Of a stretch of 54,899 nt of DNA, positions 3,836 to 22,542 are shown in pieces. The notes beneath the pieces are model-generated. The model was given only the letters and a program-made list of their open reading frames with translations, had not been told where the DNA came from and did not search any database. The position numbers were made by a program, and so were the translations under genes. Source of the DNA: Verrucomicrobiota bacterium (GTDB lineage: Bacteria > Verrucomicrobiota > Verrucomicrobiia > Limisphaerales > CANJSG01); assembly GCA_038209745.1 (NCBI GenBank), contig JBBQXJ010000026.1, positions 1-54,899 on the forward strand, written 5' to 3'. Within the stretch, counting starts at the first letter, position 1; the number at the start of each line of letters is the position of its first letter.

Positions 3836-6800
3836 CTACTGCCGGAGCGCTTCGCCCGTCCGGCTCTTGGAGACGGACATGATTTCTTCCGGGGTTCCTT
3901 CCGCCACCACCCGGCCACCCTCATCGCCGGCGTCGGGGCCGAGATCGATCACCCAATCGGCGGAACGGATGACGTCGAGGTTGTGCTCGACGACCAGCAC
4001 CGAGTGGCCGGCGTCGACGATCCGCTGGAAAACACCGATCAGGATTCGCACGTCCTCGAAGTGCAGACCCGTCGTTGGTTCGTCGAAGAGGAACAAGGTC
4101 GGTTTGTCGGACTTGCTGGCACGGGACTCGAAGTCCGCGAGATGCCGGACGAGCTTGAGCCGTTGGCTTTCGCCGCCGGACAGGGTGTTGATCGGCTGAC
4201 CCAGGCGAAGGTAGCCGAGGCCGATGTCCTGGAGCAGGGCGAAACTCTTGCGGGCGCGGAGGACGGACTTCGCAGCCGGCAATCCGTCGAGGAAGCCGAT
4301 GGCGTTGTCCACGGTGGCGTCGAGCAGGTCGGCGATGGACCATTCGAGCGCGGAGGGATTCGCGATGCGGGATTCCTGATGCCCGATGGAGGACAGTTTC
4401 ACCTCCAGGATGTGGCCTCGATAACGGCGGCCGTCGCAGTCGGGGCAGCGGACGAAGACGTCGCTGAGGAACTGCATCTCGATCTTCTCGAAGCCCGCGC
4501 CGCGGCAGCGTTCGCACTGGCCCTGAGCCGAGTTGAAGCTGAAGGCGCTGGCGTTCAAGCCGCGCTGCTGGGCCAGATCCGTCTGGGCGAAGAGTTCGCG
4601 TAGGTCTTCGAAGGCACCGATGTAGACGGCGGGATTGGAGCGCGGGGTTCGGCCGAGAGCCGTTTGATCGACGAGAACGACACGACCCAGTGCTTCGTGG
4701 CCGCTCAAAGTCGCGCTGGTAACGAGAGAGTCCTTTTCCCCATCGGAGTCTTTTTCTTTGTCGTCGTCCGAGGTGGAAGCCGGGGCGTCTTCCTCGCGGC
4801 CGAGCCGTTCCTCCAACAGAGGCATCAGAATGTCGCGGATCAACGTGCTCTTGCCCGAGCCGCTGACGCCGCTGACGCAGACGAAGCTCTGGAGCGGAAT
4901 CTCGACGGTGACATCGTGAAGGTTGTGGCGAGTCGCGTGCGCCAAAGTCAGGCGCGGAACACCGGGCTTGCCGCTGATGGGGCGGTGCTTCGGCTGGGCG
5001 GCGGATTTGCGGCCGGAAAGGTAGTCGGCGGTGAGGGAGGCCGTAGGCCGGGCATCCGTGTCCGGCGAGTTGCCGTTTCCGACTTTGCGGGACTTGCCGG
5101 GCAGGGATGCCCGGCCTACGGGGCGCAACATTTCATCCAGCGTTCCTTGGAAGACCAGGTCGCCACCGGATTCGCCGTGGCCGGGTCCGAGATCGATGAT
5201 CTGGTCGGCCGCGCGCATGACGTTCGACTCGTGTTCCACGACGACGACGGTGTTGCCCTGATCGCGCAGGCGATGAAGGACCTTTACCAATCGATCCGTG
5301 TCGCGGGGATGGAGGCCGACGCTGGGTTCGTCGAGGACGAAGAGCGTATTGACCAAGCGGGAACCGAGACAGGAAGTGAGGTTCACGCGCGCCGTTTCGC
5401 CGCCGGACAAGGTGCGCGTGGCTCGATCAAGCGTGAGGTAGCCGAGCCCGACCTCGTCAAGATAGCCAAGGCGCGCGCTGACTTCCTGAAGGGCGAGGGC
5501 GAGCGGGTCGTTGGCGGAAGCGCGGTGCTGAGCGGCCAGTGCATCGACGAGACCCAGCGCGTCGCGGACGGGCAGCAGATAAAAGTCGGACAGCGTGATC
5601 TGCGATTTCTGATTTCTGATTTCTGATTTTCGAGCTGTCGTCTCCGGGGCTGCGTCACCCTGGGCAAGGGAGTCCGTTCGAATGTTTCCGCCAAACCCCT
5701 CACCGTGCCCTCTCCCCGTCCGACTGGGAGAGGGTGGCCGTAGGCCGGGTGAGGGCTTTTCAATCGGAATTCCAAAATCGGCAATCGGCAATCGGAACAA
5801 CAGTGCTTCCGGCTGGAACCGTTGGCCGTCGCAGGTCGGGCATTTCGTGTAGGCGCGATAACGGGAGAGGAGCACGCGAACGTGCATTTTGTAGGCCTTT
5901 GATTCGAGCCAGCGGAAGTAGCCCTTCACGCCATACCACGCGTTGGGCCATTCGTGTTCCTTGTCCTTGCCGTAGCCGGGATCGCCGTCGACGACCCAGC
6001 GCTGCCATTTCTCGGGCAGGTCTCGGAAGGGGACGTTCAGCGGACACTTGTTTCGACCCGCCTCGTTCAGCATGTCGTTCTGGCACTGTTTACCGGTCTC
6101 GGTCTGCCATGGTTTGACCGCGCCCTCGGCCAGCGTCTTGGAGCGGTCGGGAATGGCGAGGTCGTAGTCGATCGTGATGATCCGGCCAAAGCCCTTGCAC
6201 TCGGGGCAGGCTCCGACGGGATGGTTGAAGCTGAAGAGCGCGGCGGTGGGTTCGCGGTAGTCGAGGTCGCAAAGGGCGCAGTGGAACCGATTGCTGAAGA
6301 GGAGCGGCTTTTCCTTGTTTGCACCCATGAAACGCACGGACACTTTGCCGTGGCCGAAGTGGAAGGCCTGTTCGCAGGCTTCGGTGAAACGGGCGCGGCT
6401 GGAAGCGGCGAGCTTGATTCGGTCCTGGATGACATCGATGCCGCTGGAGTGATCCCGGATGCCGGATGCCGGATGCTCGACAAGGGCGGCGGCGTCCTCG
6501 ATGCGAACGGGTTGGCCGTCGATCAGCAGTCGTTGGAAACCCTGCTTGGCCACGAGGGCTAGCTGTTCGGCGACGGAAAGTTTTTCCGAGAGGGTGAGAT
6601 GGAAGGTGAGGAGCGCTTCACGGAGGCCGGAGGCCGGAGGCCGGATACCCGATCCCTGATCCCCGATCCCTGATGCCGGATCTCTCAGAGAGCTCGGCTG
6701 ATCCCGGAGCTCCATCGCCGCGTAGCGGCTGCTGCCTTCATCCGGCATCGGGTATCCGGCATCGGGTGTCGTTTTGGTCAGCTTCTCCCAGATCGTCTGC

Positions 6801-7213
6801 GGCGAATCCTTCCGCACCGGCTGTCCGCACTTCCGGCAATACAGCGTGCTGACGTGCGGCCACAGCACCTTCATGTAGTCGCAGATCTCCGTCATCGTGC
6901 CGACGGTGGAGCGGGTGGAGCGGACGGCGTTGCGCTGCTCGATGGCGATGGCCGGAGGGATGCCCTCGATGCTGTCCACGGCCGGCTTGTCCATCCGGTC
7001 GAAAAACTGGCGGGCATACGGCGAAAAGGTCTCCACATAGCGGCGCTGGCCCTCGGCGAAGAGCGTGTCGAAGGCGAGGGAGCTCTTGCCGGAACCGCTC
7101 AATCCCGTGACCACGATCAGCTTCCGGAAGGGAAGATCGAGGTCGAGATTCTTGAGGTTGTTCTGGCGGGCGCCGCGGATGCGGATGCACGCCGGCGCGG
7201 CCGGTTTCGACAT
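3836..7213 (-). CDS. uvrA: Excinuclease ABC subunit A (UvrA family) with repeat-derived in-frame insertions
   Basis: 'GARQNNLKN', two Walker A motifs (GLSGSGKSS, GVSGSGKST), two LSGGE signatures, CxxC zinc fingers, 'DEPTTGLH', 'DWVIDLGP..GDEGG'. Confidence 0.95.
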   Translation of the reverse strand: MSKPAAPACIRIRGARQNNLKNLDLDLPFRKLIVVTGLSGSGKSSLAFDTLFAEGQRRYVETFSPYARQFFDRMDKPAVDSIEGIPPAIAIEQRNAVRSTRSTVGTMTEICDYMKVLWPHVSTLYCRKCGQPVRKDSPQTIWEKLTKTTPDAGYPMPDEGSSRYAAMELRDQPSSLRDPASGIGDQGSGIRPPASGLREALLTFHLTLSEKLSVAEQLALVAKQGFQRLLIDGQPVRIEDAAALVEHPASGIRDHSSGIDVIQDRIKLAASSRARFTEACEQAFHFGHGKVSVRFMGANKEKPLLFSNRFHCALCDLDYREPTAALFSFNHPVGACPECKGFGRIITIDYDLAIPDRSKTLAEGAVKPWQTETGKQCQNDMLNEAGRNKCPLNVPFRDLPEKWQRWVVDGDPGYGKDKEHEWPNAWYGVKGYFRWLESKAYKMHVRVLLSRYRAYTKCPTCDGQRFQPEALLFRLPIADFGIPIEKPSPGLRPPSPSRTGRGHGEGFGGNIRTDSLAQGDAAPETTARKSEIRNQKSQITLSDFYLLPVRDALGLVDALAAQHRASANDPLALALQEVSARLGYLDEVGLGYLTLDRATRTLSGGETARVNLTSCLGSRLVNTLFVLDEPSVGLHPRDTDRLVKVLHRLRDQGNTVVVVEHESNVMRAADQIIDLGPGHGESGGDLVFQGTLDEMLRPVGRASLPGKSRKVGNGNSPDTDARPTASLTADYLSGRKSAAQPKHRPISGKPGVPRLTLAHATRHNLHDVTVEIPLQSFVCVSGVSGSGKSTLIRDILMPLLEERLGREEDAPASTSDDDKEKDSDGEKDSLVTSATLSGHEALGRVVLVDQTALGRTPRSNPAVYIGAFEDLRELFAQTDLAQQRGLNASAFSFNSAQGQCERCRGAGFEKIEMQFLSDVFVRCPDCDGRRYRGHILEVKLSSIGHQESRIANPSALEWSIADLLDATVDNAIGFLDGLPAAKSVLRARKSFALLQDIGLGYLRLGQPINTLSGGESQRLKLVRHLADFESRASKSDKPTLFLFDEPTTGLHFEDVRILIGVFQRIVDAGHSVLVVEHNLDVIRSADWVIDLGPDAGDEGGRVVAEGTPEEIMSVSKSRTGEALRQ
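5043..5119. repeat. GTAG-type REP doublet (REPIN-like) inside uvrA
   Basis: GTAGGCCGGGCATCCGTGTCCGGC (5043-5066) and an inverted copy (5096-5119, 2 mismatches); each is GTAG plus a hairpin. Confidence 0.8.
5598..5795. repeat. Composite repeat insert in uvrA: opposed heptamer arrays around a CCCTCACC...GGTGAGGG hairpin
   Basis: (TCTGATT)n at ~5598-5630, hairpin at 5696-5755, (CAATCGG)n at 5761-5795. Confidence 0.75.
6621..6769. repeat. Opposed heptamer tandem arrays inside uvrA
   Basis: Nine CGGAGGC/CCGATCC-like units (6621-6683) and four oppositely oriented CCGGCAT/CGGGTAT units (6742-6769); shorter arrays at 6449-6476 and 4355-4389. Confidence 0.75.
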
Positions 7214-7553: not shown

Positions 7554-8093
7554 ATGAAAACCCTCAGTTCCTTCCTCGCCGTCGCCGCCACCCTGCTCCT
7601 CGCCGCCTCGCCGCTCCAAGCCCAGCAGCAGCGCAAGAGCCCGCATGAAACCGTCAGCCAGGTCGTGGACGGCGGCCGCGTCACCATCACCTACGGCAGC
7701 CCCTACATGAAGGGCCGAAAGATCTGGGGCGGTCTCGTGCCCTACGGCAAGGCCTGGCGCATGGGAGCCGATGAGGCGACTTCGCTGATCACCCAGAAGC
7801 CCCTCCTGTTCGGCGATACGACCATTCCGGCTGGCGCCTACACCCTCTATTTTGTCCCGAACGAAGACGGATCGGCCAAGCTCGCCTTCTGCAGCGTGCT
7901 CGGCGCCTGGGGCGTGCCCGTCGATGAGAAGAACGACGTGGCCCGCGTGGACGCCAAGAAGAGCGATTCCAACGGTGCGGCCGCGACCGAGCAGTTCACC
8001 GTGGCCATCGACAAGGGTTCGTCCGGCGGGGGAGTGATCAAGTTGATGTGGGAGAAGACCACCTACAGCATTCCGTTCACCGTGAAGAAGTGA
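7554..8093 (+). CDS. DUF2911 domain secreted protein
   Basis: Signal peptide; 'ITYGSPYMKGRKIWGGLVPYGKAWRMGADEAT', 'IPAGAYTLY'. Confidence 0.9.
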   Translation: MKTLSSFLAVAATLLLAASPLQAQQQRKSPHETVSQVVDGGRVTITYGSPYMKGRKIWGGLVPYGKAWRMGADEATSLITQKPLLFGDTTIPAGAYTLYFVPNEDGSAKLAFCSVLGAWGVPVDEKNDVARVDAKKSDSNGAAATEQFTVAIDKGSSGGGVIKLMWEKTTYSIPFTVKK

Positions 8094-8237: not shown

Positions 8238-9116
8238 ATGATTCCGAGATACCTTGGGGCCCGCTTGGCCCTTGCCTGTGGTTTGATCGCGGCCCTCGCC
8301 GGAACCGCCATTGCGGCCGACCTTGAATTTCCCTCGCCCAGCCCCGCCGCCACCGTGAAGCAAAAGGTCGGGCTGACCGACGTCGAGGTCGTCTATTCGC
8401 GACCCGGCGTGAAAGGGCGGAAGATCTTCGGCTCGATGATTCCCTACGGCGAGGTTTGGCGAACCGGCGCCAACGCCGCGACCCGCGTTTCCTTCAGCGC
8501 CGACGTGACGCTCGGCGGAGCCAAGCTGGCGGCCGGTTCCTACGAACTGTTCACCATCCCCGGCAAAACCGAGTGGACGATCGTCGTGCAAAAACTCCCT
8601 GAGAAGGCGTCGTGGGGCGCCTATGCCTACAAGCCCGAGAACGACACGGCTCGCTTCAAGTCCAAGCCGATGAAGACCGGTGCGCCGGTCGAGAGCTTCA
8701 CCATCGGATTCGGCGACCTGCACGATACCGGCGCCACGCTGTTCATAGAATGGGAACGGACCCGAGTGCCCGTGAAGCTGGAAGTCGACACCGTCGGGAT
8801 GCTGACTCCGAAGGTCAAGGAAGCCATCGCCTCGGGCGCACCGCAGACGTGGAACTTCTACTACGGCGCGGCATCCCTGCTCTTCAACAACGGGGGCGAT
8901 TCCCAACAGGCCCTGGCGTGGGTGGATGAATCGATCAAACTGCGCGCAGGCTATCCCGGTACCCTTTTGCTGAAGACCCGGCTTCTGGTGAAGCTCGGTC
9001 GCAAGGACGAGGCCAGGGCGGTCGCGGCCCAGACGGTCGAGAGCGGACTCAAGCTGGAAGGTCCCGACAGCGTGATGGCCCGGCAGGCCAAGGAAATTGC
9101 GAAATCGCTCAAGTGA
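8238..9116 (+). CDS. DUF2911 domain protein with C-terminal TPR-like helices
   Basis: Signal peptide; 'YSRPGVKGRKIFGSMIPYGEVWRTGANAAT'; 'ALAWVDESI...LLVKLGRKDEA'. Confidence 0.9.
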   Translation: MIPRYLGARLALACGLIAALAGTAIAADLEFPSPSPAATVKQKVGLTDVEVVYSRPGVKGRKIFGSMIPYGEVWRTGANAATRVSFSADVTLGGAKLAAGSYELFTIPGKTEWTIVVQKLPEKASWGAYAYKPENDTARFKSKPMKTGAPVESFTIGFGDLHDTGATLFIEWERTRVPVKLEVDTVGMLTPKVKEAIASGAPQTWNFYYGAASLLFNNGGDSQQALAWVDESIKLRAGYPGTLLLKTRLLVKLGRKDEARAVAAQTVESGLKLEGPDSVMARQAKEIAKSLK

Positions 9117-11590
9117 TGCAATTGCTCCGCTCGATGTTCCGCCCGGTCGTCGCGGCCACGGTGGCGACGGTCGTGTTTGCCGGATTCGGCATCACGGCGG
9201 CCGAGCCGTCGCCGGTTGCGATCCGGGAGGAACTGCGGAGCTTCGGCACCTACGCGACGGTGCTCCACATCGCCGCCCATCCCGACGACGAGAACACCCA
9301 GTTGATCGCCTATCTCGCCGGCGGTCGGGGCTATCGCATGGGCTATCTCTCGGTCACTCGTGGCGATGGCGGCCAAAACGAGATCGGTCCGGAATTTGGT
9401 GAACGGCTGGGATTGGCCCGGACGCAGGAGCTCCTGGCCGCGCGTCGGATCGATGGAGGCCGGCAGTTTTTCACGAGAGCCCTGGACTTCGGCTACTCGA
9501 AGAGCGTCGACGAAACCCTCGCCATCTGGGACCGGAAACAGGTGGTGGCCGATGTTGTCCGTGTGATCCGCGAGTTCCGCCCGGACGTGATCGTGACCCG
9601 CTTTTCGCCCGAACCCAGCGGGACCCACGGCCACCACACCGCGTCGGCCGTCGTGGCGCTGGAAGCCTTCAAACTGGCCGGTGATCCGACGGCGTTTCCA
9701 GAACAGCTCGCGGAAGGCCTCACGCCGTGGCAGCCCGTCCGCATCCTGCACAACGGCTGGCGTGGCGAAGACGGCGGGGCGATCACGCTCAAAGCCGGAG
9801 GCAAGGACGCCGTCACGGGCGAGAGCTTCCAGGCCATCGCGATGCGCAGCCGCGCGCAGCACAAGACGCAGGGCTTCGGAATGCGTCCGGCGGGTGATGG
9901 TGAATGGACGGAGACCTTCCGGCTCCTGGGTGGTTCCGCGGCGACCAACGACATCATGGACGGCATCGACACGACGTGGGCCCGCGTGCCCGGGGGTGCC
10001 GAGGTGGCTCGTCTGACCGAAGAGGCGTTGGCGAAGTTCGACGAGAAAGATCCGGCGGCGAGCGTCCCGGCCTTGCTGGAACTCCGGAAGCGGGTTGCCG
10101 CGCTCCCGACCGATCCAGTGGTCGCGGACAAGCGGCGCCAGTTGGACCATGTGCTGCAAGGCTGCCTCGGCTTGACGGTCGAGAGCGTCCCGGCGGTGGC
10201 CGAAGTGGCGCCGGGCGAGACCCTGGCGATCCGCGCTCAAACGAGGGTGCGCTCCAGCGTGCCCGTTCGGTGGGTCGCCGTTAGTGTGCCGGGATTGGCA
10301 GACGTCAAACGGCCGGCCTCGCTCCAGCCGGGCGAAGCCGTCGCCCGGGATCTGTCTTTCATTGTGCCCAAGGCCACGCCGTTGACGCAGCCGTATTGGC
10401 TCAGAGAAGAGCCAACGACCGGAATGTTCCGCGTGGCCGAGACCAAACTGATCGGCCGGCCGGAGAATCCGCCCGCGTTCACGGTCGACTACGAATTCGA
10501 AGTCGGCGGCCAGACGCTGGTCGTGGCGGACGACCTGATGGCGCCGGCCGACGGCGGGAAGCCCGCGCGCCCTATTGCGGTGATCTCGCCGGTGTCGATG
10601 CGGTTCGAATCCGGCGTGGCACTGTTCATTCCGGGCGCGGCGAAGTTGATCCAGGTGGATGTGACCGCTGCGCGAGCGGATGCCTTTGGAATCCTGCATC
10701 TGGAAGCCCCGGGCGGCTGGACCGTTTCTCCTGTCAGCCAGGCCTTCAAGATTGCCCGGGCCGGCGAGAGCACGAAGGCGACCTTCACCGTGAAGGCACC
10801 CGCTTCAGCGGCGTCCGGGGCGCTGCTGGCTGTTGCGGAGATCGACGGAGCAAGGTTCAGCAATTCGCGCGTCGTGATCGATTATCCCCACATTCCGCTC
10901 CAGCTCCTCCAGCCGCAGGCCCGGCTCAAGGTGGCGGCGTTCGATGTCGCCACGCGGGGCAAGGCGGTCGGCTATCTTCCAGGCGCGGGCGACGACACCG
11001 CCGAAGCCCTGGAACAGCTCGGCTACAAGGTGACCATGGTCACGGGAGCGGACCTAACACCGGAGAAGCTCGCGGGTCTCGATGCGGTCGTGATCGGCGT
11101 GCGGGCGTTCAACGAGCGCAAGGATCTCGCCGCAAACCTCCCTGGCCTGTTCGCCTACGTCGAAGCCGGTGGCACGGTCGTCGCCCAATACAACCGTCCC
11201 AACGGGCTCCGCGCCCAACCCCTCGGGCCCTACGAAATCTCCATCGCCGGTCCCGCTCCCAAGCAGCGCGTGACGGACGAGACCGCCCCCGTTTCTTTCC
11301 TCGCTCCGGGCCATCCCGCGCTGACGACACCCAACAAGATCGGGCCGGCGGATTTCAACGGCTGGGTGCAGGAGCGGGGCGCGTATTTCCCGAGTTCCTG
11401 GGACGCGCACTACACACCGGTGTTGGCGATGAACGATCCCGGCGAAGAGCCGTTGAAGAGCAGCGTGCTCATCGCCCGTCACGGCAAGGGCTACTTCGTC
11501 TACACGGGCCTGGCGTTCTTCCGGCAACTTCCGGCCGGGGTGCCCGGCGCTTATCGCCTCTTCGCCAACCTGGTTTCCCTCGGAAAATGA
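9113..11590 (+). CDS. Secreted PIG-L/LmbE-family deacetylase with NEW3-like and class I GATase-like C-terminal domains
   Basis: Signal peptide; 'AAHPDDE', 'TRGDGGQN', 'HGHHTASA'; C-terminal 'GWVQERGAYF' and 'FFRQLPAGVPGAYRLFANL'. Overlaps upstream stop (GTG 9113 or ATG 9116). Confidence 0.9.
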   Translation: MMQLLRSMFRPVVAATVATVVFAGFGITAAEPSPVAIREELRSFGTYATVLHIAAHPDDENTQLIAYLAGGRGYRMGYLSVTRGDGGQNEIGPEFGERLGLARTQELLAARRIDGGRQFFTRALDFGYSKSVDETLAIWDRKQVVADVVRVIREFRPDVIVTRFSPEPSGTHGHHTASAVVALEAFKLAGDPTAFPEQLAEGLTPWQPVRILHNGWRGEDGGAITLKAGGKDAVTGESFQAIAMRSRAQHKTQGFGMRPAGDGEWTETFRLLGGSAATNDIMDGIDTTWARVPGGAEVARLTEEALAKFDEKDPAASVPALLELRKRVAALPTDPVVADKRRQLDHVLQGCLGLTVESVPAVAEVAPGETLAIRAQTRVRSSVPVRWVAVSVPGLADVKRPASLQPGEAVARDLSFIVPKATPLTQPYWLREEPTTGMFRVAETKLIGRPENPPAFTVDYEFEVGGQTLVVADDLMAPADGGKPARPIAVISPVSMRFESGVALFIPGAAKLIQVDVTAARADAFGILHLEAPGGWTVSPVSQAFKIARAGESTKATFTVKAPASAASGALLAVAEIDGARFSNSRVVIDYPHIPLQLLQPQARLKVAAFDVATRGKAVGYLPGAGDDTAEALEQLGYKVTMVTGADLTPEKLAGLDAVVIGVRAFNERKDLAANLPGLFAYVEAGGTVVAQYNRPNGLRAQPLGPYEISIAGPAPKQRVTDETAPVSFLAPGHPALTTPNKIGPADFNGWVQERGAYFPSSWDAHYTPVLAMNDPGEEPLKSSVLIARHGKGYFVYTGLAFFRQLPAGVPGAYRLFANLVSLGK

Positions 11591-11733
11591 AGCGCGTTCC
11601 CGATCCCTCCACCCAGGAAGAACCGCCGGGAGTGCCGGGATTCCGCACTTGGCGCGGCGTCTACGGCTTCGTCTTCGGATTCTTCGTGGTCTGTGTCCTG
11701 CTGCTCGCGCTCTTCACGCGCGTGTTCGCATGA
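11587..11733 (+). CDS. 48-aa single-pass membrane peptide (probable symporter accessory subunit)
   Basis: MKRVPDPSTQEEPPGVPGFRTWRGVYGFVFGFFVVCVLLLALFTRVFA; ATGA overlaps with both neighbours. Confidence 0.8.
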   Translation: MKRVPDPSTQEEPPGVPGFRTWRGVYGFVFGFFVVCVLLLALFTRVFA

Positions 11734-13872: not shown

Positions 13873-14649
13873 ATGAGCGCATCGCCCGTCATCTGTTTCG
13901 GCCAGCAACCCTGCGGCTTCTTTCCGCGGAGGTTCCTCTACGCCAAGTTCGTGACGGCCCGCCGGCTCCAGTCGGAGATCGGCGGCGAGATCGTCTTCTT
14001 CTACCACGACAGCGACCACGATCCGCGCGAGACCCGGACCACCTTGCGCCACCGCAAGACCGGCGAACCGATCGAGCTGAACTTCGCCTTCGACAACCCG
14101 GTTCAGCGAAAGTTTTCGCCGCTGTATCTGAAGCGCGTCCGCGCCGATTGGCACGCGAAGACCGCGCTGCAGTTGCCCGCCTATGTGGACCCTCGTTGGG
14201 TGGATGCGTTGCGTGGAAACGCGGCGTCGACCGTGGGCGAATTCTGCCTGGAGATGTATCGGCGAATGGGCTTGCTGGAAGGCGTCCGGGTCGCGAGATC
14301 GAGCGAAGCCGCGTTTCGACGGGCGGCTTGCGACGTGGCGGACTTCTTCGTCGACGTGCCCTTTGAAGACGAGATCGTCCGGGCCCGTTGGATGGAGGGC
14401 GCGTTGAAACTGCACAAGGGCGGCGACCACTTCGTCACGCTCCCTGCCGTGGACTTTGCCAAGGATCAGATCAGCCCGTCCCGCGACAGTCGGCTGCGCT
14501 GGATGCAGTCGGTCCTGCACTGCACCCACTACATTGCCGGCGCCGGCGAGGCCGCCTACTTGAACCACGAAGACGCTCCTGAAATCACTTTCGTAAACCG
14601 CGACACCATCGACCGATCCGATGAAGCCTACACCGACCTCCCAGCCTGA
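13873..14649 (+). CDS. Short BshC-like protein (putative cysteine-adding enzyme, Rossmann core only)
   Basis: 'FGQQP', 'VFFYHDSDHD', 'ISP...LRWMQSVL...YIAGAGEAAY' parallel BshC motifs GQQ, FW..EDHD, SP..LRP..Q and GPGE..Y; sits immediately upstream of bshB1 and bshA. Confidence 0.7.
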   Translation: MSASPVICFGQQPCGFFPRRFLYAKFVTARRLQSEIGGEIVFFYHDSDHDPRETRTTLRHRKTGEPIELNFAFDNPVQRKFSPLYLKRVRADWHAKTALQLPAYVDPRWVDALRGNAASTVGEFCLEMYRRMGLLEGVRVARSSEAAFRRAACDVADFFVDVPFEDEIVRARWMEGALKLHKGGDHFVTLPAVDFAKDQISPSRDSRLRWMQSVLHCTHYIAGAGEAAYLNHEDAPEITFVNRDTIDRSDEAYTDLPA

Positions 14650-15352
14650 CCTCGCGCCGTTGTTGGTCTTTGGCGCGCACCCCGACGACATCGAGTTTGG
14701 TTGCGGTGGTGTCGTGGCCAAGGAAGCCCAGACCGGACGCGCCGTGCACCTGGTGGTCTGCTCGCGCGGTGAAGCCGGTTCACGAGGGACGCCGGAAGAG
14801 CGGATGGCAGAATCGAAGACTTCGGCGGCGGTGCTCGGAGCGACCATCGAGTTCGTCCACCTCGACGGCGACGCCCACTTGGAGATCCGAGCCGCCCACG
14901 CGATCGGTTTGGCGGGCTTGATTCGGCGGGTGAAGCCGGCGGTCGTACTGGCGCCGAGCCTGGTGCAGAACCAACACCCGGACCATTGGCGGCTGGGCAC
15001 GCTGGTGCGGGACGCGGCCCGGTTGGCCCGCTATGGCGGATTGGCCGAACTGCGCGAATTCGCACCACACGCCATCAATTTGCTGCTGTTTTATGCAGTG
15101 ACGCCCGACGCCGAGCCTTCGGATCTATCGCCAGTGTTGGTGGATGTGTCCTCCGTGGTTCCAAAGTGGACTGCCGCGATGGAGGCGCATGTGACCCAGG
15201 TGACGTCCCGCAGCTATGTGGAGCTGCAATTGTCGCGGGCCCGATCCCGGGGACTGCAAGCCGGCGTCGAGTATGCCACGGCGCTCTTCCCGAACGATCC
15301 GCCGTTGATCGATTCACTGCGGCAATTGGGTTCGGGAGCCCGGAGTTTTTAG
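14621..15352 (+). CDS. bshB1: GlcNAc-malate deacetylase, BshB1-like (PIG-L family)
   Basis: 'FGAHPDDIEFGCGG', 'SRGEAGSRGTPEER', 'QHPDH', 'ARLARYGGL'; context with bshA. Confidence 0.8.
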   Translation: MKPTPTSQPDLAPLLVFGAHPDDIEFGCGGVVAKEAQTGRAVHLVVCSRGEAGSRGTPEERMAESKTSAAVLGATIEFVHLDGDAHLEIRAAHAIGLAGLIRRVKPAVVLAPSLVQNQHPDHWRLGTLVRDAARLARYGGLAELREFAPHAINLLLFYAVTPDAEPSDLSPVLVDVSSVVPKWTAAMEAHVTQVTSRSYVELQLSRARSRGLQAGVEYATALFPNDPPLIDSLRQLGSGARSF

Positions 15353-15366
15353 GGCGGATCTTTCGC

Positions 15367-15745
15367 AACCACAGATGGCCACAGACCAACACAGATAGCT
15401 GTCGCCCGATGGCCCACCTTTTCACAGCCGAAGATGTGTTTCAGATCGAAGGATGCGGGTGCGTGCCAGGTCCGGGCATTCTAACCGGGCCGGATTCGCC
15501 GACTGTGTCTATTGGAGAGAGAATCAGATTGAGAACGCCAGCCGTTCTGGAAATTGACTCGGTCGTCAGAGCGGTTGAGATGATTTCTTATCGAAAGAGA
15601 CCTGAGAAAATCTTTGTTCCGATTTTGCTCCCGATAGACATCTCCAAGGACATGGTTCCTGTCGGGACAGAAGCGCACCTGTTGAGGGAAATATAAGAAT
15701 GGCGGATCGTTTCGTATCTGTGTCCATCTGTGTTTATCTGTGGTT
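15367..15745. repeat. Second cassette bounded by the same inverted decamer arrays
   Basis: AACCACAGATGGCCACAGACCAACACAGAT (15367-15396) and ATCTGTGTCCATCTGTGTTTATCTGTGGTT (15716-15745). Confidence 0.8.
15409..15696 (+). CDS. 95-aa hypothetical cargo protein, EF-Tu domain II-like beta barrel
   Basis: 'AEDVFQIEGCGCV..PGI...IGERIRLRTP...IDSVVRAVEMI...ISKDMVPVGTE'; visibly more AT-rich than its neighbours. Confidence 0.6.
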   Translation: MAHLFTAEDVFQIEGCGCVPGPGILTGPDSPTVSIGERIRLRTPAVLEIDSVVRAVEMISYRKRPEKIFVPILLPIDISKDMVPVGTEAHLLREI

Positions 15746-15769: not shown

Positions 15770-16918
15770 ATGACCACCCTCGCACCTTTGAAAATTGGGA
15801 TCACCTGCTACCCGTCGGTGGGTGGCAGCGGCGTGTTGGCGTCGGCGCTGGGCGAGGAGCTGGCGAAGCGAGGGCATGAGATCCACTTCATCAGCTACGA
15901 GCGGCCCTTCCGTCTGCAGACCGATGCGCCCAGGCTGCAGTTCCATCCGGTGGTCATCAACGACTACGACCTCTTCAAGTATCCCGACTACACGCTGCCG
16001 TTGTCGGTGAAGATGGCCGAGGTCAGTCGTGATCACGGGCTCGACGTCCTGCATGTCCACTACGCGGTGCCGCACGCCACGGCCGCGATTCTCGCGCGGT
16101 CGATGTTGCCGGTCGGGCAGGCTCCAAAGGTCGTCACCACGCTCCACGGCACCGACACGACGCTGCTCGGACGGGACCCGGGCTACGGCCCCGCCATTCG
16201 GCACGCCCTGGACTGCTCGGATGCCGTGACCGCCGTTTCGGCCTTCTTGAAAGGGGAGAGCCAGCGGCTGCTCGGCTTCGGCGGTGAGGTCGACGTGATC
16301 CACAACTTCTTCGATCCGCATCCGCCGCAGCGTTCCCGGGAGGAAGTGCGACGGGAACTGGGCGTCGGGCCGGATGATTTGCTGCTGTTCCATTCGTCCA
16401 ACCTGCGACCGTTGAAACGCGTCGATCTCGTGCTCGAAGCGGTGGCGCGGCTCAAGACTGCGCGCTCCGTGAAGTTGCTCGTGCTGGCGGGCGGAAGCTT
16501 CGCTCCGTTCGGGGAATTGGTGCGCCGGCTGGGTCTGGAAGACCGTGTCGTCGTCCGCGAAAACGTCGCCACGATCGAAGACTATTTGCAGGCGGCGGAT
16601 CTCGGGGTGTTCGCATCGGAGACGGAAAGCTTCTGCCTCAGCATCCTGGAGGCGATGTGTTTCGACTGTCCGAGCGTTTCGACGCGGGTCGGTGGGATCC
16701 CGGAGCTGATCGGCGGCGAAGCGACCGGAATCATGGTTCCCCACGGCGACGCGGAGGGGCTTTCTCGCGGTTTGAGCGACTTGATCAACGACCCGGATCG
16801 GCGTCGGGCGATGGGCCGGGCGGCCAGGGAGCGAGCCCGCGGATTGTTCTCCTCCGCGGTGATCGTTCCCCAATACGAGGCGCTCTATCGCCGCGTGTGC
16901 TCGATGGAGCCGCGTTGA
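15770..16918 (+). CDS. bshA: N-acetyl-alpha-D-glucosaminyl L-malate synthase (GT4)
   Basis: 'KIGITCYPSVGGSGVLA', 'LDVLHVHYAVPHA', 'VTTLHGTD', 'SNLRPLKR', 'SETESF..LEAM'. Confidence 0.93.
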   Translation: MTTLAPLKIGITCYPSVGGSGVLASALGEELAKRGHEIHFISYERPFRLQTDAPRLQFHPVVINDYDLFKYPDYTLPLSVKMAEVSRDHGLDVLHVHYAVPHATAAILARSMLPVGQAPKVVTTLHGTDTTLLGRDPGYGPAIRHALDCSDAVTAVSAFLKGESQRLLGFGGEVDVIHNFFDPHPPQRSREEVRRELGVGPDDLLLFHSSNLRPLKRVDLVLEAVARLKTARSVKLLVLAGGSFAPFGELVRRLGLEDRVVVRENVATIEDYLQAADLGVFASETESFCLSILEAMCFDCPSVSTRVGGIPELIGGEATGIMVPHGDAEGLSRGLSDLINDPDRRRAMGRAARERARGLFSSAVIVPQYEALYRRVCSMEPR

Positions 16919-20890: not shown

Positions 20891-21229
20891 TCAGCGCTTG
20901 AGGCCGATGCTGGCCGTTTCCGGCATTTCGTGCGCGCAGGGTTGGTTGATCGGCGCTTCCGGCGCGATGTCGTTGGGCTGGACCACGCGATTCTGGAGCA
21001 TCCACGACTCGACCTCTTCGCCGCTGATGTCGGGAAGCATGGTGCCGTTGATCTCAACGCAGGGGCTCAGCATCTGGCCGCTCTTTTCGATCATTTCCGC
21101 GCGCTGGGCGGAGTCGTTGATGATGTCGCGGTCTTCGAACGGCAGGTCATATTTCTTCATGACGGCGCGGATTCCCATGCTCCAGCCACACGACGGTTTC
21201 AAATAGGCGATGATCTTCGGTTTGGTCAT
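20891..21229 (-). CDS. Monothiol glutaredoxin-like protein (CGWS)
   Basis: 'YLKPSCGWS', 'FEDRDI...MIEKSGQMLSPCVEING'; 112 aa from ATG 21229. Confidence 0.85.
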   Translation of the reverse strand: MTKPKIIAYLKPSCGWSMGIRAVMKKYDLPFEDRDIINDSAQRAEMIEKSGQMLSPCVEINGTMLPDISGEEVESWMLQNRVVQPNDIAPEAPINQPCAHEMPETASIGLKR

Positions 21230-21426
21230 TGCCGCAAGATGGGATGAAACGGGCGCGCCGTCCAGAGGCGACCGACGCGGAAATCCCGTAGCACGACGCC
21301 CTAGACCCGGACCACCGATCCCGTGCCCCGACAAACCTTCTGATTTGGGCCTTCGATCTCCGGAATTCCCGTAGGAAACCGCTTTCCATCTTGCGGCGCG
21401 GGCGGGTTCCGGGCTGTTTTGCCCCA

Positions 21427-22542
21427 ATGCGAAAACGGGTTCTGATCGTCCCCGACAAGTTCAAGGGCACTTTGACCGCCGCTGCGGCCGCCCTGGCCAT
21501 CAGCCGCGGATGGAAGTCCGTGCGGCCGGACGACGAGCTGACCCTGCTGCCGATGAGCGACGGCGGCGACGGTTTTGGCCCGGTGCTCAGCCGGTTGCTG
21601 AACGGGCGCGAGCGTTGGCTGAAGACCTTCGACGCGGCACGCCAGCCGTGCGAGGCGATGTGGTGGTATGACCCGGAATCCAAGACGGCGATCATCGAGT
21701 CGGCCAAGGTGATCGGCCTCGCGATGTTGCCGCCCGGCAAATACCACCCCTTCGATCTGGACACGTATGGGTTGGGCGCGGTGCTGCGGGCCGCGCAGAA
21801 GTCCGGGGCGACCCGGTGCGTCGTGGGCGTCGGAGGCAGCGCGACGAACGACGGAGGCTTCGGACTGGCGCGGTCGTTGGGCTGGCGTTTTCTGAGCAAG
21901 AACGGCCAGGAGCTCGGCGCCTGGACCAGTTTGGCCAAGGCGACCGGAGTGGAAGCGCCCGCCGGCCGGAAACTCTTTCCGAAACTGGTCGTCGCCACCG
22001 ATGTGACCAATCCGTTGTTGGGCGCGCAGGGTTGTTCCCGCGTCTATGGTCCGCAGAAGGGGCTCCTTCCGGACGACATGGCCGCGGCCGAGGCGTCGTT
22101 GGAAGCGCTGGCCAAGGTGATGAAAGCAGTGGGCCCGGATCTGTCGAAGGAGCCCGGGGCCGGAGCCGCCGGCGGGCTCGGCTACGCGCTCATGGCGTTC
22201 TGTGGAGCGGAGCGCGAGTCCGGCTTCGAGATCTTTTCCAGGCTGGCCAAACTCTCGGGCCTGATCAGGGACTCGGATCTCGTGCTGACGGGCGAGGGAT
22301 CCATCGACGAGCAGACCGCGATGGGCAAGGGCACGGGCCAGGTGGCCGCCCTCTGCGCGAAGCTGAAGCGGCCGTGTATCGGATTGGCCGGCGTGGTGGA
22401 CATTCCCGAAAAGCTGGGCAAGAACGCCCTCTTCACGGCGACGGATTCCTTGGTGCGACTGGTTGCCCCGGAGGAGGCGATGGCGCGCCCCGCGATGCAC
22501 TTGGCGGCGTTGGCGGCGGAACAAGCCCGTGCGGTCGCCTGA
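21427..22542 (+). CDS. Glycerate kinase (GlxK/GarK family)
   Basis: 'PDKFKGTL', 'PMSDGGDG', 'GGSATNDGG', 'GAGAAGGLG', 'TGEGSIDEQTAMGK'. Confidence 0.93.
   Translation: MRKRVLIVPDKFKGTLTAAAAALAISRGWKSVRPDDELTLLPMSDGGDGFGPVLSRLLNGRERWLKTFDAARQPCEAMWWYDPESKTAIIESAKVIGLAMLPPGKYHPFDLDTYGLGAVLRAAQKSGATRCVVGVGGSATNDGGFGLARSLGWRFLSKNGQELGAWTSLAKATGVEAPAGRKLFPKLVVATDVTNPLLGAQGCSRVYGPQKGLLPDDMAAAEASLEALAKVMKAVGPDLSKEPGAGAAGGLGYALMAFCGAERESGFEIFSRLAKLSGLIRDSDLVLTGEGSIDEQTAMGKGTGQVAALCAKLKRPCIGLAGVVDIPEKLGKNALFTATDSLVRLVAPEEAMARPAMHLAALAAEQARAVA

Follow-up and report, generated by a model that had tools for sequence, protein, structure and literature searches.

Bacillithiol synthesis ends with BshC (YllA in Bacillus subtilis; PDB 4WBD; TIGR03998; PF10079 plus PF24850), the pathway's least understood enzyme and a protein of about 540 aa that combines a Rossmann core, a connecting-peptide region and a C-terminal coiled coil. 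Its reaction and its cysteine donor were still given as unknown in a 2018 review (PMC5790435). In the mycothiol pathway the analogous last step is carried out by the cysteine ligase MshC (PDB 3C8Z), which has a class I synthetase fold. Here we describe a BshC-like protein of half the usual size, encoded at positions 13873-14649 (+ strand) of contig JBBQXJ010000026.1 from a Verrucomicrobiota bacterium (assembly GCA_038209745.1); the window is this whole stretch of 54,899 nucleotides.

The phylum has been surveyed for such pathways before. Hiras et al. 2018 (PMC6282198) listed Verrucomicrobia and Planctomycetes as lacking a documented or predicted low-molecular-weight thiol. That survey and one from 2025 (PMC12719100) required a length similar to that of canonical BshC, so neither could have counted a half-size family. 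We found no mention of one in literature on BshC since 2019, on short or truncated forms, on bacillithiol in Verrucomicrobia or on DUF2911, a search made mostly outside the subscription literature.

Homology of the half-size protein to BshC, and its spread

The open reading frame (ORF) at 13873-14649 is intact and encodes 258 aa. It overlaps the next gene, a PIG-L deacetylase (14621-15352), by 29 nt, and bshA lies downstream. The G+C content at its third codon positions is 0.82, within the 0.76-0.89 of its neighbours. The original prediction of an intact, host-like frame overlapping a bshB1-like gene upstream of bshA thus agrees with the coordinates and codon use.

The protein itself gave no Pfam or NCBIfam match up to E 1 and no match to PDB sequences. 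It does not reach the curated hidden Markov model cut-offs for BshC (TIGR03998; PF10079 plus PF24850), and just 2 of 105 short-form members touched PF10079 (best E 0.013). When the short-form profile was aligned by hhalign with that of 85 canonical BshC sequences, however, the probability was 94% (E 1.4e-7), against at most 2.4% for 30 column-shuffled profiles and 0.17% for the reversed profile, which places the match beyond chance. The predicted model has the fold of BshC, a Rossmann core with connecting peptides, and folds confidently alone as a single unit of 258 aa. On these profile and model data, the half-size protein is a BshC homolog cut to its catalytic core.

The short form spans about residues 84-385 of BshC, so that the first ~83 residues are gone, and profile alignment, model and residue mapping agree that the C-terminal coiled-coil domain (PF24850) is absent. 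A further ~40 internal residues are also missing. While hhalign places this gap at a beta-hairpin, HMMER alignments and the model strands at 158-189 retain the hairpin and remove a helix at about 244-283; we prefer the latter. Since BshC cut-offs are not reached and the coiled coil is lacking, the protein is best filed as a new BshC-like family.

Both proteins share, in order, GQQ, K, DHD..E, S...R and G..E..Y. The motifs of the 258-aa protein (GQQ 10-12, DSDHD 46-50, SP..RLRWMQ 201-212, IAGAGEAAY 221-229) occur in BshC order as originally proposed; the Q of 'SP..LR..Q' is one position out of register with BshC Q339. Of 19 core columns that are invariant in BshC (P0333 numbering), 11 carry the same residue in register (G91, Q92, Q93, K106, D137, E140, S329, R335, G351, E354 and Y357), three (P100, Q339 and R378) are matched 1-2 positions away, four are replaced and one is unaligned. 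The polar active-site residues are invariant within the short-form family.

Short length is a property of the family. From 7,256 candidates of 141-452 aa, 6,700 match it; the relatives measure 252-284 aa, and 110 of the best 120 have 257-258 aa. After clustering at 50%, 244 representatives match, with identities down to about 30%. The stop codon comes no more than 11 codons after the match in 79 of 80 genome loci; in the remaining one the frame is still open where the contig stops. Longer forms, when searched for, amounted to seven single-contig joins to the symporter or to BshA, none of them bearing a coiled coil. The protein P0271 (826 aa, single contig) joins a whole symporter to a whole short BshC and may be a fusion or a lost stop.

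Among 301 genomes of the phylum, 20 encode the short form, 22 BshA and two PF10079, and 279 none of these. All 20 short-form genomes have BshA above its curated cut-off, and the two PF10079 genomes are exactly the two BshA genomes that lack the short form. A class sample had 39 carriers in 281 genomes and added at least 10 further families. Both forms are sited beside bshA/bshB and were never found together in one genome: none of the 54 short-form genomes yielded canonical full-length BshC, and the source genome (92% complete) likewise gave no full-length bshC. The earlier proposal of a minimal catalytic-core BshC clade is therefore upheld by the predicted fold, by relatives that are also short and by the lack of a full-length bshC elsewhere. 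Most named carriers belong to Verrucomicrobiota; the others are some Phycisphaerae and Obscuribacterales, one Acidiferrales and one Baltobacteraceae metagenome-assembled genome; Oleiharenicola sp. Vm1 (L079) represents cultured carriers. Judged by predicted fold and gene context, this is a real, widespread and unannotated BshC variant. A natural half-size BshC shows which parts are dispensable, offers a small protein suited to reconstitution and makes two stated open questions testable.

Two phylum genomes carry canonical operons in the order methyltransferase-bshC-bshB1-bshA (L198:4814-9021 and L199:6036-10646), in which the methyltransferase may be NmbA. A further locus (L150:5001-6480) has genes for a divergent short BshC (43%) and for a BshB-like deacetylase facing each other between gatA and gatB; the nearest 5 kb hold no bshA. 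From the ORFs inspected by eye (gatA, gatB and ones resembling geranylgeranyl reductase and RNase P), its contig looks archaeal.

The surrounding operon

The unit is larger than the three genes at its end. Upstream on the same strand lie genes for a DUF2911 protein (7554-8093), a DUF2911 plus TPR protein (8238-9116), an LmbE/PIG-L hydrolase of 825 aa whose N-terminus resembles a signal peptide (9113-11590), a 48-aa membrane protein (11587-11733) with matches in 81 fetched loci, and a sodium:solute symporter (PF00474; 11730-13433) that is conserved directly upstream of the short bshC. The symporter was upstream in 72/78, 62/65 and 28/29 loci with enough flank in three locus sets, and the hydrolase in 58/63 and 25/27. 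Hydrolases of the 825-aa type occur in 21 of 22 BshA genomes and in none of the 279 others; by a crude hydropathy test, 76 of 82 copies begin with a hydrophobic leader. The best NCBIfam match of the 825-aa protein is the mycothiol conjugate amidase Mca, far below cut-off. One of the two canonical genomes (G247, with canonical BshC and YpdA) also has the hydrolase-symporter module, on another contig, showing that it accompanies BshA pathways of both kinds. No further recurring gene was detected in the 6-kb flanks of 80 loci. The operon links an unstudied hydrolase-symporter-DUF2911 module to a bacillithiol-type pathway.

Downstream, the 243-aa BshB1-like Zn deacetylase (14621-15352, +) scores 133 bits with the best NCBIfam BshB1 model, under the cut-off of 182.5, and retains the HPDD and HPDH metal motifs and Arg53. 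BshA, the N-acetylglucosaminyl-malate (GlcNAc-malate) synthase of the GT4 type (15770-16918, +), reaches 388.8 bits with TIGR03999 (cut-off 273.7), its motifs intact as in solved BshA. The small bshB is optional in the short-form family: bshA directly follows the short bshC in 1/77, 54/71 and 3/29 loci of the three sets, and in the single-contig genome G615 the exported hydrolase is the sole PIG-L gene. The original prediction did not include the hydrolase-symporter operon, the lack of YpdA or the optional small bshB.

A CACAGAT-CACAGA repeat (33 matches genome-wide) forms two inverted pairs in the window (13451, 13808, 15370 and 15732), which bracket the symporter-to-bshC and bshB-to-bshA spacers; most relatives have shorter spacers at these two places. 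The second pair encloses a 95-aa ORF (15409-15696) that has no Pfam match and no counterpart in the other fetched loci.

Proposed function and rival explanations

From homology, predicted fold, size, gene context and distribution we infer every chemical step that follows. BshA would make GlcNAc-malate, which the small BshB would deacetylate to glucosaminyl-malate (GlcN-malate) in those genomes that have it. The half-size protein probably joins activated cysteine to GlcN-malate by an amide bond, giving bacillithiol or a close derivative. The catalytic domain of class I lysyl-tRNA synthetase (PDB 1IRX, residues 18-295) differs in that no HIGH or KMSKS, as these motifs are generally defined, is visible in the half-size protein, which as a 258-aa single unit also lacks an anticodon-binding domain. 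As these ATP motifs are absent, the acyl donor is probably pre-activated; Cys-tRNA would be our first guess and a thioester the second. Cyclodipeptide synthases offer a precedent, being small class I catalytic domains without ATP motifs that form amides from aminoacyl-tRNA; they were not among the 50 structural matches listed for the model, and we claim no homology to them. A pre-activated donor is assumed for BshC itself in the 2018 review (PMC5790435).

The exported LmbE hydrolase, with the used thiol, a conjugate of that thiol or GlcNAc-malate as substrate, could free GlcN-malate outside the cytoplasm, and the symporter could import the GlcN-malate for re-loading. Such a loop of export (by a hypothetical exporter), outside hydrolysis and re-import would explain both why the reductase YpdA is missing and why bshB can be dispensed with. 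We tentatively raise, as a possibility on the less probable side, a system derived from bacillithiol that needs no cytoplasmic reductase, in which a minimal BshC loads cysteine or a new acyl group onto GlcN-malate, the product is spent outside and the hydrolase and symporter bring the sugar-acid carrier back. Taken furthest, the product may be a metabolite not yet described, from Verrucomicrobiota that abound in soil and freshwater.

Several observations weigh against cysteine ligation to GlcN-malate. Short form and BshC share about 15% identity; the BshC invariants G99, W130, P344 and P352 are replaced by P18, F43, H216 and A224, R294 has no aligned residue, and near-invariant E134 is an invariant Ser47. 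Arg109 of BshB is Gln in 76/76 loci and Arg in both canonical loci, and an R109K mutation lowered activity on GlcNAc-malate (PMC4101496). A small-bshB query, which addressed deacetylases of that fold alone, returned nothing in 4/4 tested genomes in which bshA directly follows. None of the 54 short-form genomes had the disulfide reductase YpdA (Bdr) above its cut-off, versus 2/2 canonical ones, and the bacilliredoxins BrxA/B and BrxC were found in 0 of 5, absences that a product other than a redox thiol would explain just as well. Canonical BshC had itself not been reconstituted as of 2018 (PMC5790435), and 16 of the 20 phylum carriers belong to one family and so do not represent 20 independent events. 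The scaffold might transfer a non-cysteine group, or might act on a different acceptor in place of GlcN-malate (or on GlcNAc-malate without prior deacetylation), yielding a new glucosaminyl-acid metabolite, possibly a non-thiol that is exported and recovered. The short-form-specific invariants S47, F43, P18, W210 and H219, which differ in BshC, and the archaeal-looking L150 locus, with short form and deacetylase away from bshA, fit this explanation as well. We nevertheless regard it as rather unlikely: BshA exceeds its curated cut-off with intact motifs in 20/20 phylum genomes, the majority of BshC active-core invariants are retained, and the hydrolase-symporter module also occurs in a canonical-pathway genome.

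The half-size protein could instead be half of a cysteine ligase, with an unrelated partner replacing the N-terminal helices and coiled coil. P498, Q503, R505 and H535 are invariant in the 85 canonical BshC sequences, so the C-terminal domain matters there, and the coiled coil is reported as necessary for dimerisation of BshC (PMC4360819). We consider such a partner improbable, given that no PF24850 protein exceeded the cut-off in 4/4 short-form genomes (three of them single-contig), that the 6-kb flanks hold no additional conserved gene and that the model folds confidently alone. Least probable is that the gene is a bshC that has decayed or was truncated in assembly, or that its product is a binding protein without catalytic activity. 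The near-absence of family matches might suggest it, but some 6,700 clusters in the same size range and the conserved stop positions refute decay of a full-length bshC, and the polar active-site residues are invariant. Ligation of cysteine to GlcN-malate is the reading that we favour.

Other features of the window

A single-cysteine CGWS glutaredoxin is encoded at 20894-21205 (-); it occurs in 46 of 60 class genomes, including some in which no bacillithiol-type operon was found. The window also holds an ordinary UvrA-family ATPase (3836-7213, -) and an ordinary glycerate kinase (21391-22542, +).
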